The notes under the pieces were generated by a model. The model worked only from the letters and a program-made list of their open reading frames with translations, was not told the origin of the DNA and searched no databases. A stretch of 64,000 nt of DNA from an uncultured Acidobacteriota bacterium (GTDB taxonomy: Bacteria > Acidobacteriota > Thermoanaerobaculia > UBA5066 > Gp7-AA6), in contig CAVRXJ010000025.1 in the NCBI GenBank assembly GCA_963725095.1, positions 407,949 to 471,948 of the forward strand. Direction: 5' to 3'. Both the position numbers and the translations under genes were made by a program. This document shows, one piece after another, positions 43,690-50,103 of this stretch. How positions within the stretch are numbered: the first letter of the stretch is position 1; every line of letters starts with the position of its first letter.

Positions 43690-43900
43690 GAACGTTGGTC
43701 CTCCGGCGTCTGATCGACACCGCGATGGTAAGCCCGACCGGGCCTCGGGGCCAACTGGACCCTCGGGGTGGCATTGGGAGGCCGGCGGATGGAGCCCCTT
43801 CGGGCCGGAAGCGAACCCCGTCGCCCGGCTGGGATGCTCCGACTCCACCCTCGACGCCGATTGCATCATCCCGGCGGCCGACGCTATCCTCTGTCGCACC

Positions 43901-44189
43901 ATGGGCGTGACGCCGGCCGTTTCGATCCACGTCTTCGGTCCGCTGCGCACGTACTGCGCCGGCGCTTCGAGGCTGTCGGTGTCGGCAGACACCGTGCGGG
44001 TTCTGCTGGCGGACCTCGAACAGAGGGAGCCCGACTTGTACCGCAACGTGTGCGACGAAACGGGCACGCTGCGCGGCCACTTGAACGTGTTCGTGAACTC
44101 GGACAACGTGCGCGATCTCGGCGGCGTCGACACGGCTCTGACAGCCGGGGGACGTGGTGACATTCCTGCCGGCGGTCTCAGGAGGTTGA
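43901..44189 (+). CDS. MoaD/ThiS-family ubiquitin-like small protein (C-terminal Gly-Gly); frame break at a G-run near ~44150
   Basis: MGVTPAVSIHVFGPLRTYCAG...LNVFVNSDNVRDLGGVDTAL lies within ORF 43556... After correcting one base in gccgggggac, the end reads AGDVVTFLPAVSGG*, which is the beta-grasp sulfur-carrier hallmark. Confidence 0.7.
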
Positions 44190-44191
44190 AG

Positions 44192-45305
44192 ATGGCGGAT
44201 CGGGTGGTTCTCACGATCGGGACGAGGAAGGGAGTGTTCGTCGCCGAAGCCGCGAAACCAAGGCGCCGCTTCGAGCTGCGCGGGCCCTTCGGTTCCGGAG
44301 TCCCGGTGTACACGACGCTCATCGACACGCGCGGCGCCCCGCGCCTGTACGCCTCGAGCTGCAATCCGTTCTTCGGCATGAAGCTGCTGCGTTCGACCGA
44401 CCTCGGGAAGTCCTTCAAGGAGACGAAGTCGGCGCCGGCCTTCCCCAAGGACGACGGACGCGCCCTGGCCAACATCTGGTCGCTCGAAGTCGGGGACGGC
44501 CGGAAGGAACTGTGGTGCGGGGTCGAACCGGCCTCCCTGTTCCGGAGTCCTGACGGCGGCGATTCGTGGCAGATGGTGCCCGGCATCAGCAATCACGAGC
44601 ACGCGCGCAAGTGGCAGCCCGGTGCGGGCGGCCTCTGCCTGCACACGATCGTGCGCGACGGCAATCGCGTGCACCTCGGGCATCTCGACCGGCGGCCACT
44701 ACGTCAGCGAGGACGGCGGCCAGACCTTCCGGGCCTCCAATCAGGGCGTCGGCGCCGGCTTCGCCCCCGATCCCTATCCCGAGTTCGGGCAGTGCGTTCA
44801 CAAGATCGCGCGGCACGAGGGCGCGCCCGGCCGGCTCTACATGCAGAACCACGGCGGATGGGCCGATTGGACCGGGCCCGGGGGACCGCGGCCGGACATC
44901 GGGGTGCTGCGCAGCGACGACTACGGCCGCTCCTGGCGATCGATCGCCAAGGGCCTGCCGTCGGACTTCGGATTCCCCATCGTCGTCCATCCGCACGACG
45001 CCGACACCGTCTACGTGCTGCCTCTCGAACCGGCGACGCGATCCTGCCCCGGCGGCGCGCCCGCCGTGTGGCGCAGCGAGAACGGCGGCGGCTCGTGGAG
45101 CCGCCTCGCGCGCGGGCTGCCGAAGAGGCAGAGCTACTTCACCGTCCAGCGTGACGCGATGGACATCGACCGGCTCAAGTCACCCGCGCTCTACTTCGGA
45201 ACGACGACCGGCCAGCTCTGGATCGGGAGGGAGGGCGGTGAAGAGTTCGACTGCCTGTTCGACTCGCTGCCGCCGATCCACAACGTCAAGGTCGCCGTCG
45301 TGTGA
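44192..45305 (+). CDS. BNR/Asp-box repeat beta-propeller protein (sialidase-like/Ycf48-like fold); frame break near ~44690
   Basis: AGGAGG RBS before ATG 44192. Five Asp-box-like motifs are present: RSTDLGKSF, RSPDGGDSW, VSEDGGQTF, RSDDYGRSW, RSENGGGSW. The pieces lie in ORFs 43556.. and 44622..45305. Confidence 0.7.
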
Positions 45306-45331
45306 GCGTCCGGCCTTCTTCGGACAGCCGC

Positions 45332-46436
45332 CTAGCGGATTTCCTCGAAGTAGCCGTGCAGCTCCCGCAGGGCGGGCCGATCGATCTTCTGGTCCCGCAG
45401 CGACTCCCGGAGCAGCTGCAGCGCGGCCATGCCCTCCGGAACCATGTGGAGCTCCTGGATGACCGGCAAGGCCTCGAGCACCGATTGCGTGGCCGCCTGC
45501 TCCTGCCCGAGCTCGAGGAGCAGGTCGGCGATCACGAGGTGGAGGGCCGCCACGTCGGCGCGCATTCCGATCTGCTCGAACTCGATCTGCGCGGCGCGGT
45601 ACGTCTCGATCGACTGCGCGAGGTTACCGGTCTCCCGGAGCAGCGTCGCGAGCCCCCACTGGACCTTGGCGAGGGCGACGCGGTCCTCGATCCGCCTCAA
45701 GACGGGGATCGCCTTCCGGGAGGCTTCGATGGCGCGCTCGGCGTCGCCCTGCATTCCGTAGAGGTGCGTGAGGTTGGCGTAGGAGGAAGCCACGAGCTTC
45801 TCGCTGCCGAGCGATTCGGCGTCGCTGCAGATCTGCAGGAAGACGTCGGTCGCCTCGGCGAGCTTCTCGCTCTCCAGGAGCGCGAGACCTTCGAGGAAAC
45901 GCGCCTTCAGCTCTTCCTCGGGCATCGGGAGCTTCCGGAAGCTCTGCACGAGCGACGGCGAGAGCTCGAGCACCGCCTCGAGATTCCTCTCCTCCAGGCG
46001 CAGGGCGAGCCTCTGGTAGGCCAGGCGAGACAGGTCCGCCACGGCGTTCATGGTGTGCCGGAAGCCGGCTTCCGACCGATCGAACCAGAGCCGCGCCTCG
46101 TCCCGCCGCGAGAGCTGGCGGCAGGCGGTGCCGCAGATCAGGGCGAACTCCCCGAGGAAGTATTCGCGCTCGTCGAACAGCCCGATCGGCCGGTCGGGAG
46201 TCAGGAGGAAGCGGTAGGTGAACTCGGCCTCGTCGCGAACGACCGCGGGCGTCGTGTCGAGCCGGTCCCGCAGCCGCGTCGCCAGCGAGAGCAGGACGTC
46301 GGGCTCTTCGAGATGGAGCTCTTCGGCCCGCGCCGCGCGCTCGGAGAGGGGCGCGCCGAGGATCCGATCGGCCGAGCCCTCCACTTCCTCGGGCGAGATG
46401 CCCGCGGCTGGGAAAGCGGATCACGCGCCCGACCAT
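45332..46436 (-). CDS. TPR-like helical repeat protein; frame break near ~46400
   Basis: ORF 45332..46384 (350 aa) is all-helical, with repeats such as ASSYANLTHLYGMQGDAERAIEASRKAIPVL and AKVQWGLATLLRETGNLAQSIETYRAAQIEF. The N-terminus MVGRVIRFP from ATG 46436 is in another frame. Confidence 0.6.
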
Positions 46437-46796
46437 CAGAGCTCCTCGTCCATGCGGGACTGGAGGTCCATGGCGAGGTCTTCGGGCTCCCGAGAGAGGA
46501 TGCGGTTCAACCCGTCATCGGGCGAGGGCTGTCCGGCGAGCTTCCAGAGCTGGAGGGATCGTCCGTACTGGCAGGCCGCCGAGAGCAGAGCGAGGCGAAG
46601 CGCCTTCGGCGTGCATCTGGGGCCCGCCGCCCCGCTTGGCCAGGCGGAGAAACCAGACGAGCAGATCCTCTTCGGCGCCGGCCGTTTCCTCGACCGTCAG
46701 CCGGTAGTGGGAGAGGAGGGTCGTGCGGACCACGACCTGGAGGCGCGCAAATACCTCGCGCGCCTCGTCATCCCGGACTGGAGAAATGCGCTGCAC
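46436..46796 (-). CDS. hypothetical small helical protein (weak resemblance to ECF sigma region 2 only); frame break near ~46620
   Basis: GTG 46796 gives MQRISPVRDDEAREVFARLQVVVRTTLLSHYRLTVEETAGAEEDLLVWFLRLAKRGG. After a frame change it continues ALRLALLSAACQYGRSLQLWKLAGQPSPDDGLNRILSREPEDLAMDLQSRMDEEL*. The stop overlaps the TPR gene start by 1 nt. Confidence 0.4.
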
Positions 46797-46893
46797 GGCT
46801 GGCTTTCTGGAAGTCTGAGCAAGGCTACACGACTCCCCGGAGCCGGTAAAGGCACGAATGTGGCGGTCGCGAAGGCCTGAGGCGCCGAGAGGG

Positions 46894-47022
46894 TTAGATC
46901 AGGTCGGGAATGACTCCGCCGATCTTGATCACGAAGCGCGTCGTCTTCTTCTCGGGACGGGACGCCTTCGGGACCTCGATCGGACGTTCGGGGAGCCGGG
47001 CAGGTGTGGTGGAAGAAGCCAT
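46894..47022 (-). CDS. 42-codon micro-ORF with a strong RBS
   Basis: AAAGGAGA lies 6 nt upstream of ATG 47022. The product is MASSTTPARLPERPIEVPKASRPEKKTTRFVIKIGGVIPDLI*. It forms the tail of track ORF 46894..47523 and sits in an otherwise non-coding, less GC-rich ~440-bp gap. Confidence 0.4.
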   Translation of the reverse strand: MASSTTPARLPERPIEVPKASRPEKKTTRFVIKIGGVIPDLI

Positions 47023-47039
47023 CGTCGTCTCCTTTCGCC

Positions 47040-47063
47040 AAAAACGCTCGGGACCTCCGAGCG
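47040..47063 (-). terminator. intrinsic-terminator-like hairpin (CGCUCGG-agguc-CCGAGCG followed by UUUUU) immediately 5' of the micro-ORF RBS
   Basis: Read directly from the sequence: 47045-47051 pairs with 47057-47063, and a 5-nt T-run on the minus strand covers 47040-47044. Confidence 0.35.
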
Positions 47064-47081
47064 GATCACTTCGAATCTGAG

Positions 47082-47100
47082 GGAATTGGATCACAATTCC
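47082..47100. promoter_or_regulatory. perfect palindrome GGAATTG-gatca-CAATTCC in the divergent intergenic region (candidate operator)
   Basis: Read directly from the sequence. It lies between the divergently oriented micro-ORF and M16 peptidase genes. Confidence 0.25.
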
Positions 47101-47238
47101 GCCCCGCCGGGTATCACCCAATTTGGAGGGGGCTGCAGGCGCCGGTGCCTCGGTCCGCATCTCAACTGCCTGAAAACGCGCGAATTGCGGTAATCTACGC
47201 CGGCCTTTGGCAGAGTCCTGCCGCGAGAGGAGTCTTCG

Positions 47239-50103
47239 ATGCTTCGAGTTCCCGCCGCCATGGCGATCCTGGCGCTGCTCGCCCCGCTGGCCGTCGCCCA
47301 GAGGAAGGGATCGCCGGCCAAGCCCGCTCAGACTCCCCGACGTCCTCCCCTTCAACGCCTCCGAGAAACTCCTCTCGAACGGCCTGAAGGTCATCGTCGT
47401 TCCGACCGGCTTCCCCAACATCGTCTCGCTGCAGATCCCCGTCCAGACCGGATCGCGCAACGAGGTGGAGCCGGGCAAGTCGGGCTTCGCCCACTTCTTC
47501 GAGCACATGATGTTCCGGGGCACACCGGACTATCCGCCCGCGAAGTACCAGGGGATCCTGACCCAGGTCGGCGCCCGCCAGAACGCCTACACGACCGACG
47601 ACTACACCAACTACCACACGACCTTCTCCAAGGAAGACCTCGACCTGATGCTCCGGGTGGAGGCCGACCGGTTCCAGCACCTCTCCTACGACGAGGCCGC
47701 GTTCAAGACCGAGTCGCGCGCGGTGCTCGGCGAGTACAACAAGAACAGCGCCAACCCGATCAACAAGCTCGACGAAGCCCAGCGGGAGAAGGCCTTCACC
47801 ACGCACACGTACAAGCACACGACGATGGGCTTCCTCAAGGACATCGAGGACATGCCCAACCAGTACGCCTACTCGAAGGAGTTCTTCCAACGCTGGTACC
47901 GCCCCGAGCACACGACGATCATCGTCGCGGGCGACGTCCAGGCCGAACCCGTCTTCGCCCTCGTCGAGAAGTACTGGGGAGGCTGGAAGCCCGGGACCTA
48001 CCGCGCCGCGATCCCCCAGGAACCTCCGGCCAAGGGGCCCGTGTCCACGCACGTCAGCTGGCCGAGCCCGACGCTGCCCTGGGTCAGCGTCGGATTCCAC
48101 TGCCCGGCCTTCTCCGACACCGAGAAGTCCTTCGCGGCGCTCGACATGCTCTTCGACCTCACCTTCGGCGAGACCTCCGACCTCTACAAGAGGCTCGTCG
48201 AGACCGAGCAGAAGGTCGACCAGATCTTCGCCGACAGCGGCGGCGCGCAGGATCCGTCGCTCGCGACGGTGTACGCGCGCGTCAAGAAGCTCGAGGACGC
48301 GGTCTACGTGCGCGACCAGATTCTCGCCGCCTTCGCCGCCGCGACCGCGACCCCGGTCGACGCCCGGCGCCTCGCCGACGCGAAGAGCAACGCCCGCTAC
48401 AGCTTCGCGCGGCGCCTCGACAACACGGAGACGATCGCCGCGAGCCTGGCGCGGTTCGTTCGCTACGACCGCTCCTACCAGACGCTCAACCGGCTCTACC
48501 GGGTCTACGCCTCGCTCGACGCCGGAAGACCTCCAGGCCGTCGCGAAGACCTACTTCACCGACGCCAACCTCGTCCTCGCGACGCTTTCGAGCTCGCCGA
48601 TGCCCGAAGCCATGGCGACGCTCCCGGCGCTCGCGACGTTCGCTGCCGAAGGCCGCCGGCCGGCGCGACGGACTCTGAACTTCCTCGTCCAGAAGACCGT
48701 GCTCCCGCAGCTGAACGTGAAGCTGCTCTTCACCGTCGGCTCGGCGTACGACCCGAAGGGCAAGGAGGGACTCTCGGCCCTCGCCTCCGCGATGATCGCG
48801 CAGGCGGGCTCCCGCGACCTCCGGATCGACGAGATCAACCGCGCGCTGTATCCGATGGCGGGCTCGTTCAACGACCAGGTCGACAAGGAGATGACGACGT
48901 TCACCGGCTCGATCCACCGGGACAACTGGAAGGCGTTCTTCGACATCGTCCTCCCGCAGCTTCTCGACCCCGGCTTCCGCGCGGAGGACTTCCAGCGCCT
49001 GAAGGACGCCCAGCTGAACGCGCTCACCGAGGATCTGCGCGCCAACAACGAGGAGGAGCTCGGCAAGGAGCAGCTGCAGGCGACCCTCTTCGCCGGAACT
49101 CCCTATGGCCATCCCGTCCTCGGCACCGTCGCCGGAATCCAGTCGATCACGCTCCAGGACGTTCAGGACTTCGTCCGCGCGGCGTACACGCGCTCGGCCC
49201 TCACGATCGGCGTCGCCGGAGACGCGCCGGAGGAGCTGCTCGCCCGCCTGCGCACGGAGCTCGCGACGGCTCCCGGCCGGGCCCGCCCTGCCCGAAGCCC
49301 GAGGGCGTCGTCGCGCGAAAACCCCGAGGCGTGCAGGTCGAGATCATCGAGAAGGACACCCGGGCCACCGCGATCTCGCTCGGGCAGCCGACCGCCGTCG
49401 TCCGCTCCTCGCCGGACTTTGCCGCCCTCTGGGTGGCGCGCACCTGGCTCGGCGAGCACCGCTCCTCCGTCTCACACCTGTACCAGCGGATCCGCGAGAC
49501 GCGCGGCATGAACTACGGGGACTATGCCTACATCGAGGCCTTCCCGCGCGGGATGTTCCAGTTCTTCCCGGACCCGAACCTCGCCCGGCGCGCCCAGATC
49601 TTCGAGATCTGGATCCGGCCGGTCATGCCGGACAACGCCCACATGGCGCTGCGCATCGCCGTCGCCGAGCTCGACCGCCTCGTCGCAGAACGGGCTCTCC
49701 CAGGAGGACTTCGAGAACGACGCGCGGCTACCTGATGAAGAACGTCTACGTCATGACGGCGACGCAGAACCAGCAGATCGGCTACGCGCTCGACTCGAAG
49801 TGGTACGGGATCGGCGAGTTCACGACCTACATGCGGGAGCAGCTCGGCAAGCTCACGCGCGAGGACGTCAACCGCGCCATCCGGAAGCACCTCTCGGCCG
49901 GCGACCTCTCGGTGGTCATCATCACCAAGGATGCCAAGGGCCTCAAGGACAAGCTCGTGGCGGACACGTTCTCGCCCATCAAGTACGACGGCGAGAAGCC
50001 GCAGGAGCTGCTCGACGAAGACAAGGTCATCGGCGCGCGCAAGCTCGGGATCACCCCGGAGAACGTCAAGATCATCCCCGTCGACGACGTGTTCGCGCGG
50101 TGA
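47239..50103 (+). CDS. secreted fused double-M16 (pitrilysin family) zinc peptidase, ~950 aa; at least 4 frame breaks
   Basis: GAGAGGAG RBS and a signal peptide MLRVPAAMAILALLAPLAVAQ. The active half carries GFAHFFEHMMFRGT (the HxxEH motif) in ORF 47207... The second M16-like half, lacking HxxEH, reads LNVKLLFTVGSAYDPKGKEGLSALASAM in ORF 48600... The tail is in ORF 49105..50103. Confidence 0.85.

Follow-up and report, generated by a model that had tools for sequence, protein, structure and literature searches.

We analysed a three-gene cassette that lies on the minus strand of a 64,000-nt stretch of contig CAVRXJ010000025.1 (hereafter, the window) from an uncultured acidobacterium of the class Thermoanaerobaculia. 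The cassette consists of a micro-open reading frame (micro-ORF) for a micropeptide, MIC, a gene for a small helical protein, HEL, and a gene for a tetratricopeptide repeat (TPR) protein. An earlier reading of the letters of the window (the original prediction) had likened the locus to RRNPP systems, i.e. to regulation by cytoplasmic TPR peptide receptors. The features of the cassette, in the order in which they are read, are the following:

47071..47100, minus strand: promoter-like box (P1), with the 11-mer TGTGATCCAAT at 47095-47085 and then the conserved CAGATTCGA at 47079-47071
47045..47063, minus strand: hairpin of the 5' untranslated region (5'UTR), CGCTCGG-AGGTC-CCGAGCG, 7 bp, with TTTTT after it (terminator scan)
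47029..47034, minus strand: Shine-Dalgarno (SD) sequence AAGGAG within GGCGAAAGGAGACGA, a block conserved across paralogs
46894..47022, minus strand: micro-ORF (MIC), 42 codons as assembled, with a likely true product of 39 aa
46822..46850, minus strand: promoter-like element P2, TTTACC-N17-TAGCCT here and TTGACG-N17-TAGCCT in other orthologs
46436..46796, minus strand: HEL gene, from GTG 46796 to TGA 46438-46436, with an all-helical product of 119 aa
45332..46436, minus strand: TPR gene, from ATG 46436, with a product of 367 aa, overlapping the HEL stop as TGATG

The gene models are disturbed by single-base insertions, which are frequent in the assembly of the window, including 43900-50103 and elsewhere; judged against relatives, there is one surplus base each at 46401-46403, at ~46608 and within 46905-46910. 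The 42-codon ORF of the original prediction was found at 47022..46894 (minus strand) with AAGGAG 6 nt ahead of its ATG. In relatives the micro-ORF has 39 codons and ends ...GGVIPT*, and removing one base within 46905-46910 yields the predicted 39-aa product MASSTTPARLPERPIEVPKASRPEKKTTRFVIKIGGVIPT with the stop TGA at 46901-46899. The helical protein of ~120 aa exists as such in relatives, where intact HEL has 119-120 aa, but no single open frame encodes it here: the frame switches near 46610, as seen from the G+C content of third codon positions and from three-frame translation, and an independent metagenome contig, 97% identical, has one base fewer at 46608. Similarly, the ~368 aa expected for the TPR protein agree with the 367-368 aa (N-terminus MxGRVxxFP) found in relatives, the nearest of which is 98% identical, but not with the assembled ORF, which spans 45332..46384 (350 aa, start GTG 46384) because the GGG run at 46401-46403 has one G too many, which puts ATG 46436 out of frame. 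The predicted overlap of the HEL stop and the TPR start is present as TGATG at 46438-46434, and the non-coding gap is indeed less GC-rich than its surroundings (59-63% in 46800-47200, compared with 70% across the window). Outside the cassette, a divergent peptidase gene of the M16 family is spread over at least four frames and a BNR/Asp-box gene downstream (43.9-45.3 kb) is split once. Going by these sequence comparisons, we treat the extra bases as assembly errors and not as biology. Many of the related metagenome-assembled genomes (MAGs) are long-read assemblies, and an unpolished long-read assembly fits the estimated completeness of only 67.6% for this genome of 4.0 Mb in 31 contigs.

Distribution of the cassette and its micropeptide

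A set of 80 loci was drawn from records that represent each species by one genome and that all bear the label of a Thermoanaerobaculia or Acidobacteriota MAG. In 78 of them, hidden Markov model hits showed the micro-ORF upstream of the TPR gene. The order peptide-HEL-TPR was found in 65 of these 80 loci and peptide-TPR without HEL in 13, and no micro-ORF was found in the remaining two, one of which begins at a contig end. As the 13 loci without HEL keep both the peptide and the TPR gene, the peptide-TPR pair is the invariant core of the cassette, and the association of the two is more than chance. In a separate set of 52 loci from relatives, tblastn and profile searches placed a micro-ORF upstream of nearly every paralog.

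Within the family, each genome carries 3-12 TPR paralogs, and searches of the sister families of the order gave no real match to the TPR protein. When 1.84 billion clustered proteins were searched with the HEL profile, no more than 134 representatives emerged. The cassette is found only in the class Thermoanaerobaculia, a group of soil and sediment bacteria, where it is conserved and multi-copy. Scans with PADLOC and NCBIfam for a defence system or a named family returned nothing specific, and a literature search found nothing on such cassettes in Thermoanaerobaculia. The overlapping stop and start codons are evidence of translational coupling between HEL and TPR. Searches for RNA of the strain itself came up empty. 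For one relative (L136), three soil metatranscriptomes each hold a contig that covers HEL and reaches into the TPR gene, matching at 100%; two of these contigs start 16 nt past the micro-ORF stop, at a depth of 2 that does not allow contig ends to be read as transcription starts. These contigs show no more than that HEL is transcribed in situ. In three loci that lack HEL (L015, L025 and L028) the micro-ORF and the TPR gene are in frame and 66-90 nt apart, so that read-through would fuse them, an arrangement that is probably due to chance (1 in 3 for each).

At 35-51 aa, the peptides of the 78 relatives bracket the 39 aa found here; those of subfamily 2 have 10-17 aa. Pro makes up 17% and Arg 10.5% of the residues in the 78 peptides. 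Common to this set are an N-terminal block, M-x-S-x-x-P-x-R-x-P-E-R-x-P-E, and a C-terminal block, K-K-x-x-R-F-V-I-K-x-G-G-x-[IV]-P-x, whose end always falls exactly one residue past the Pro. Counted from this end, P(-2) and I/V(-3) are present in all 78 peptides, K(-8) and I(-9) in 76 and F(-11) in 74, while positions -1, -4 and -6 are hypervariable, giving 58 distinct tails over the last seven residues. Among ten orthologs, pN/pS (the ratio of non-synonymous to synonymous change) was 0.27 for the N-terminal and 0.42 for the C-terminal part, and lengths differ in multiples of 3. The test of conservation and selection suggested with the original prediction therefore came out in favour of the micro-ORF (78 of 80 loci, a pN/pS of 0.27-0.42 and in-frame indels), and this comparative evidence indicates that the micro-ORF is genuinely coding and conserved. 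A few public MAG records label it ‘hypothetical protein’, and it belongs to no family.

In a distant subfamily, whose TPR proteins are 35-41% identical, the ORF behind the same ribosome-binding site, GGCGAAAGG, has just 10-12 codons. Such short forms (e.g. MPCLKGGVPG, MEKAVSPIPF and MTKAVGGIPS) retain only the C-terminal end of the motif, ..G-G-[VI]-P-x, suggesting that the functional unit is formed by the C-terminal 7-10 residues. Furthermore, the mini-ORF of locus L049 (G002:C1, ~135.0 kb) encodes MNGITGGVPSITGGVPS, in which the conserved heptapeptide is duplicated as ITGGVPS-ITGGVPS; pheromone propeptides with tandem duplications are described for RRNPPA systems (PMC11343458), and the arrangement recalls them.

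At the other end of the gene, codons 2-6 (GCTTCTTCCACCAC, 47020-47006) are conserved across orthologs even at synonymous sites and are able to pair with the SD (AGGAG/CUUCU). This conservation may reflect a constraint at the RNA level on the initiation of translation.

Elements upstream of the micro-ORF and of HEL

In an alignment of 13 orthologous loci, TGTGATCCAAT is the sole invariant block of the upstream region, and each genome holds exactly one copy, always at the micro-ORF locus. The block lies inside the palindrome GGAATTG-N5-CAATTCC that the original prediction had pointed out; the palindrome is present at 47100-47082 but is perfect in this window only, the conserved part being TGTGATCCAAT. 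At the same distance from the ATG, paralogs carry -10-like hexamers (TATGAT, GATAAT, AATAAT or TATAGT), preceded in some cassettes by TTGAC and followed in all by a conserved CAG(A/T)TTCG. Since the box aligns with these hexamers, we read it as what is probably the part of the micro-ORF promoter that comprises the -10 and the start of transcription, and an operator may overlap it. The 5'UTR is probably ~55-65 nt and not 220 nt long, and the ~170 nt proposed earlier as further structured leader are more likely promoter and upstream DNA.

The 7-bp hairpin with its U-run was recovered by the terminator scan at 47063-47045 (minus strand), as predicted. Its stem is invariant in orthologs, and paralogs have stems that are different yet complementary (GCTCGG/CCGAGC, CCCGGG/CCCGGG, CGCGC/GCGCG, GACCCGG/CCGGGTC and others), so the search for covariation did reveal compensatory changes. 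Across 47 cassettes, the 33 nt ahead of the SD fold with a mean of -12.2 kcal/mol (z -1.8), compared with -6.8 kcal/mol (z 0.0) for controls 200 nt upstream. A T-run of at least five after the hairpin was found in only six of 78 relatives, and 62 have a run of two or fewer. Because the U-run is not conserved, the hairpin, although terminator-like in the window, is unlikely to be a general intrinsic terminator, and the terminator or attenuator proposed initially is not supported as a general feature. A better fit would be a palindromic operator or a 5' stem that stabilises the mRNA or binds a protein. Nor did we find support for a riboswitch: an Rfam 15 scan of both strands of 46300-47400 gave only two chance-level hits (E 4-6), far below gathering scores.

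Between the micro-ORF and HEL, 30 of 47 cassettes contain a P2-like TTGAC[GT]-N17-TAnnnT, with a spacer that is constant at 17 nt and variable in sequence. From its sequence, P2 looks like a separate promoter for HEL-TPR, in which case the remaining third of the cassettes would co-transcribe HEL-TPR with the peptide gene. RNAalifold found no consensus structure, conserved terminator or SD-sequestering fold in the micro-ORF-HEL spacer. A local hairpin noticed there by eye (GTGCC/GGCAC to GCGGC/GCCGC) overlaps the -35-like TTGAC and was set aside, being read as promoter. In loci L039-L049 the 17-nt spacer of the P2-like element usually holds an inverted repeat, CTGTCC-N4-GGACAG, with wobble-compatible variants, and in this subfamily 2 an operator inside the promoter is possible.

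The TPR and HEL proteins and the neighbouring genes

Pfam detected only TPR families in the TPR protein (TPR_12, 37 bits against a cut-off of 30.1) and no helix-turn-helix (HTH), bearing out the earlier impression that the protein lacks one. An AlphaFold2 (AF2) model was made on the paralog L015 with a 60-sequence alignment, using the fusion of peptide and TPR protein that natural read-through would produce, and is an all-helical repeat with a pLDDT above 95 across the TPR part. When this model was compared with the PDB by Foldseek, the best E-values went to the TPR domains of LGN/Pins (~1e-6), whereas the best full-length TM scores (0.55-0.63) went to peptide-bound Rap proteins. TMq/TMt were 0.50/0.57 for RapF-PhrF (4i9c), 0.46/0.55 for RapJ and 0.52-0.53/0.62-0.63 for phi3T Rap with its pheromone (8rtc, 8rsu). 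The Rap alignments cover ~370 columns at E-values of 1e-6 to 1e-4, and LGN/Pins is equally good by E-value. At the sequence level, the TPR profile matched NprR (1e-10), RapJ and RapF among PDB sequences, all ranked below consensus TPR proteins. The model thus supports a TPR protein that is Rap-like in size and fold. Two parts of the TPR protein, the N-terminal domain (with GLFDERxYFLGE..WFDRxExGFRHT) and the C-terminus (with MVPEGxAAL), account for most of the invariant or near-invariant columns, and the central repeats for fewer.

HEL is predicted by AF2 to form five helices (pLDDT 88.5, pTM 0.81). A Foldseek search of the PDB gave no fold match (best E 0.88), no hit was obtained with Pfam, NCBIfam or PADLOC, and a search of PDB sequences was empty; on the strength of the model we regard HEL as a new fold family. 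The earlier suggestion to search both proteins for DNA-binding or anti-sigma folds thus led to a Rap-like fold for the TPR protein, but to no HTH and to no match for HEL. A likeness of HEL to region 2 of sigma-70 is superficial and is not supported. None of 49 HEL members matched Pfam Sigma70_r2 (PF04542), and a six-frame PF04542 scan of the genome found 20 sigma genes, HEL not among them. Using hhalign, the probability was 3.2% and 0.6% against those sigma regions and 0.2% against a true region-2-only protein encoded nearby in relatives. In addition, the Foldseek hits of the confident model contained no sigma chain.

That region-2-only gene is found in subfamily 2, directly after the cassette, and encodes a genuine Sigma70_r2-only protein of 123 aa (PF04542, 27 bits, above cut-off). 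At L038:3326-5330 and at 16 other subfamily-2 loci (L033-L049) it is followed 5 nt later by a TPR paralog of 542 aa with an extra N-terminal domain of ~170 aa, the two genes forming a second pair of small protein and TPR protein. The TPR family therefore keeps company with small transcription-factor-like proteins. Further proteins contain HEL-like parts. In P0213 (344 aa), the first three HEL-like helices (E 3e-16) precede a response-regulator receiver domain and a LuxR/GerE HTH; this is either a real fusion, which would link HEL to two-component regulators, or a gene-calling artefact. P0231, P0242, P0262 and ~20 others have ~250 aa with a HEL-like domain at ~140-250, and their N-terminal domain of ~140 aa resembles the N-terminus of the 542-aa TPR paralog; Pfam gave no match.

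The gene divergent from the cassette in the window is the following:

47239..50103, plus strand: M16 peptidase gene (pitrilysin-type), with M16 and M16_C domains twice and, by eye, a signal-like N-terminus

The first half of this gene matches PF00675 (82 bits) and PF05193 (72 bits) and contains the motif HFFEH (HxxEH), the second M16/M16_C pair lies in the second half, and the description as a secreted double-M16 peptidase holds, with the signal peptide judged by eye. Its inclusion in the system did not stand: M16 adjoins one orthologous cassette lineage only, in four genera and including two cassettes without HEL, and as other paralogs adjoin unrelated genes we rejected it as a member of the cassette. 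For this one cassette it may be a target, or it may simply travel along with it. Two loci without M16 (L013 and L022) share a divergent NADH-dehydrogenase-like (FAD/NAD-binding) neighbour upstream of the micro-ORF, and the group L021, L026 and L029-L031 shares a co-directional upstream gene, indicating that each cassette lineage keeps its own neighbour.

A possible peptide-controlled partner switch and its alternatives

We tentatively favour a partner switch of peptide, TPR protein and HEL with Rap-Phr-like logic, a reading that we place slightly short of an even chance. We do so because the linkage of peptide and TPR gene is near-obligate and the paralogs have hypervariable peptide positions, because a Rap-like receptor that lacks a DNA-binding domain is accompanied by a translationally coupled HEL, and because the peptide gene and the HEL-TPR pair seem to have separate promoters. 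P1 would drive a short mRNA comprising the 5'UTR hairpin, a very strong ribosome-binding site and the 39-codon gene, and P2 would in most copies drive the coupled genes for HEL (119 aa) and the TPR protein (367 aa). The latter would be a cytoplasmic receptor or partner-switch protein that binds the micropeptide, with positions -1, -4 and -6 within the otherwise invariant end F-x-I-K-x-G-G-x-[IV]-P-x conferring specificity on each paralog. We infer that binding of the peptide alters the hold of the TPR protein on its coupled partner HEL, or the release of HEL. HEL would then change the transcription of targets, as would the TPR protein by itself where a cassette lacks HEL; the targets may include the promoters of the cassette itself and the divergent neighbour (here, the M16 peptidase).

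Several results speak against such a switch. The AF2 model of the L015 fusion leaves the conserved C-terminal motif of the peptide undocked (pLDDT ~40), and only peptide residues 6-23, i.e. the N-terminal motif, reach a pLDDT of 50-70; the fusion blocks the free C-terminus of the peptide, which makes this a weak test of docking. Mutual information between peptide and TPR columns is at noise level (top z ~4, 69 pairs). A strict promoter scan of the window and three relatives found no promoter, so that P1 and P2 are candidate promoters from comparison of loci. The micro-ORF is not covered by any of the three L136 metatranscriptome contigs, and searches with structure, Pfam and hhalign revealed no recognisable DNA-binding or RNA polymerase-binding fold in HEL. 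Finally, an export signal is missing from the peptide. Over the first 23 residues the maximum 9-residue Kyte-Doolittle hydropathy has a mean of 0.07 (max 1.6), and the sole hydrophobic stretch is the C-terminal FVIKxGGxI. The lack of an obvious secretion signal noted in the original prediction is thus confirmed, the hydrophobic N-terminal segment being missing in all 78 peptides, and leaves classical quorum sensing unsupported.

In Rap-Phr regulation, ComA or Spo0F stays bound to a Rap protein up to the moment at which a Phr peptide binds. Rap proteins consist of an N-terminal 3-helix bundle and a C-terminal TPR domain, ~375 aa in all, with no DNA-binding domain. The Rap-Phr systems of Bacillus, phages and plasmids (RapF-PhrF-ComA, RapJ, phi3T Rap; PDB 4i9c, 3ulq, 4gyo, 8rtc) provide the best full-length structural matches. 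Like them, the cassette encodes a putative receptor of ~370 aa that lacks an HTH, probably combines a helical domain at the N-terminus with a solenoid of TPRs and, as we propose, holds a separate regulator protein; a small peptide gene lies next to or close to the receptor gene, its informative part is C-terminal, and many paralogous pairs with diverged peptides exist per genome. Unlike in Rap-Phr systems, the peptide gene is located upstream and not downstream of the receptor gene, has no Sec signal and encodes a conserved Pro-rich N-terminal motif, a third, translationally coupled gene for a helical protein is present, and the host is a diderm acidobacterium. Moreover, the sequence similarity to Rap is generic to TPRs only.

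Other members of the RRNPP group, Rgg-SHP and ComR-ComS, use short peptides that have no Sec signal and are exported by PptAB. With these the cassette shares a very short peptide gene that has its own (here putative) promoter and lies next to or close to the receptor gene, an active part (here a likely one) at the C-terminus and the absence of a classical signal peptide. In contrast to SHP and ComS, whose N-terminus is basic and which include a long hydrophobic stretch, the peptides described here are hydrophilic and rich in Pro and Arg, and in contrast to Rgg and ComR, with their N-terminal HTH, the TPR protein has none.

Among the alternatives to the partner switch, a cis-acting leader or arrest peptide fares best, and we consider it distinctly unlikely. 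A terminating ribosome would be arrested by the last ~10 residues (…G-G-[VI]-P-x-stop), and this stall would control read-through into HEL-TPR or its translation. Where the peptide is long, the N-terminal motif of the growing chain would be exposed, and the TPR protein might act on it there. As in TnaC, SecM, MifM and the Erm leaders, the genes that would be regulated are preceded by a short ORF whose SD is strong, conservation is found in the last ~10 codons and a Pro stands near the stop. Indeed, conservation centres on the last ~12 codons, where the Pro at -2 never varies and the stop keeps its position, forms of only 10-12 codons exist, and in orthologs the very strong SD and ATG of the micro-ORF contrast with the weak SD and GTG of HEL. 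About a third of the cassettes lack a P2-like promoter, hence would be co-transcribed, and it is the N-terminal and not the C-terminal motif that gains confidence in the AF2 fusion. Unlike in leader peptide systems, however, a promoter-like element with constant spacing separates the micro-ORF from HEL in most copies (30 of 47 cassettes), and RNAalifold detected no conserved attenuator, terminator or SD-sequestering structure in the spacer. The hypervariable positions within the motif, the 58 tails and the tandem heptapeptide suit a ligand better than an arrest in the tunnel, and the N-terminal motif is kept across paralogs.

Bona fide RRNPP quorum sensing, in which the peptide would be exported, trimmed (e.g. 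by periplasmic M16), re-imported and bound by the Rap-like receptor, seems improbable to us. A published set of computable criteria includes a propeptide of 10-100 aa, an export signal (a basic N-terminus and a hydrophobic region for Sec, or an SHP-like profile for PptAB), a receptor of 250-500 aa with TPRs, and direct neighbourhood of the peptide and receptor genes (PMC10075063). Four of the five apply fully or in part (small peptide, 250-500-aa receptor, TPRs and adjacency); the genes are direct neighbours in 13 of 78 loci and have HEL between them in 65, including the window. The Rap-like fold, the C-terminal position of the active-looking part, as in most RRNPP propeptides, the paralog with a tandemly duplicated core and the M16 neighbour in four genera also favour this view. 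On the other hand, the peptides have no basic or hydrophobic N-terminal region (hydropathy 0.07), the 10-12-aa forms are too short for a leader, the cassette holds no transporter, M16 is not beside the other paralogs and the phylum is diderm. In the literature searched, descriptions of RRNPP systems are confined to Firmicutes and their mobile elements (PMC10075063, PMC9765709). The resemblance to RRNPP signalling first proposed is therefore upheld by the TPR linkage, which persists even where HEL is absent, by the Rap-like fold and by the multiple diverged cassettes, but not with respect to export and taxonomic range.

A special case of the partner switch that would name its output deserves little credence: HEL would be a diverged sigma-70 factor consisting of region 2 only and acting at the -10-like TGTGATCCAAT box, with the TPR protein as anti-sigma and the peptide as anti-anti-sigma factor. 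The pattern AEEDLLVWFLRL...LLSAACQYGRS resembles sigma regions 2.1-2.4 and hhalign aligns it in the same register, the P1 box resembles a -10 element and has a poor -35, and a genuine region-2-only gene with a TPR paralog adjoins the subfamily-2 cassettes. As in cytoplasmic sigma/anti-sigma and two-subunit sigma systems (extracytoplasmic function sigma factors with TPR-bearing partners; SigO-RsoA), a small helical protein is coupled to a helical-repeat partner, and related loci pair a true region-2-only protein with a paralogous TPR protein. Unlike in those systems, HEL failed every region-2 test run (Sigma70_r2 in 0 of 49 members; absent among the 20 PF04542 matches of the genome; hhalign 3%, 0.6% and 0.2%; no sigma structure by Foldseek) and has no region 4, the micro-ORF has no counterpart there, and cassettes without HEL exist.

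Equally little speaks for a micro-protein with an unrelated function of its own (ribosome- or envelope-associated, or a protease substrate or inhibitor) that is merely co-regulated with HEL-TPR: this would be in line with a peptide-TPR binding that we only infer, with the undocked C-terminal motif in the AF2 fusion and with the absence of a peptide/TPR covariation signal, but the linkage at 78 of 80 loci has persisted through many duplications and in varied genomic contexts, and peptides as short as 10 residues still precede HEL-TPR.

Regulation by cytoplasmic TPR peptide receptors is regarded as a speciality of Firmicutes. Here, abundant uncultured Acidobacteria of soils and sediments carry dozens of diverged cassettes that have the computable signature of RRNPP systems except for export, plus HEL. 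A bolder version of the partner switch, which we consider unlikely, is that Thermoanaerobaculia possess switches of a leaderless micropeptide and a Rap-like receptor, the first RRNPP-type logic outside Firmicutes, in which each tail is read by its own receptor, which releases HEL. HEL would then be a new kind of small helical transcription factor, and the peptide would be either a cell-cell signal that is somehow exported or a cell-autonomous timer.

On a practical matter, the gene models of this assembly are corrupted by single-base insertions, and the micro-ORF family illustrates concretely how small genes, though conserved, mostly escape standard annotation or go without a name. The system is small enough for in vitro work with synthetic peptides. 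If the peptide is the ligand, the cassette would extend the regulatory principle of RRNPP systems to a diderm phylum and add two new protein families, MIC and HEL.

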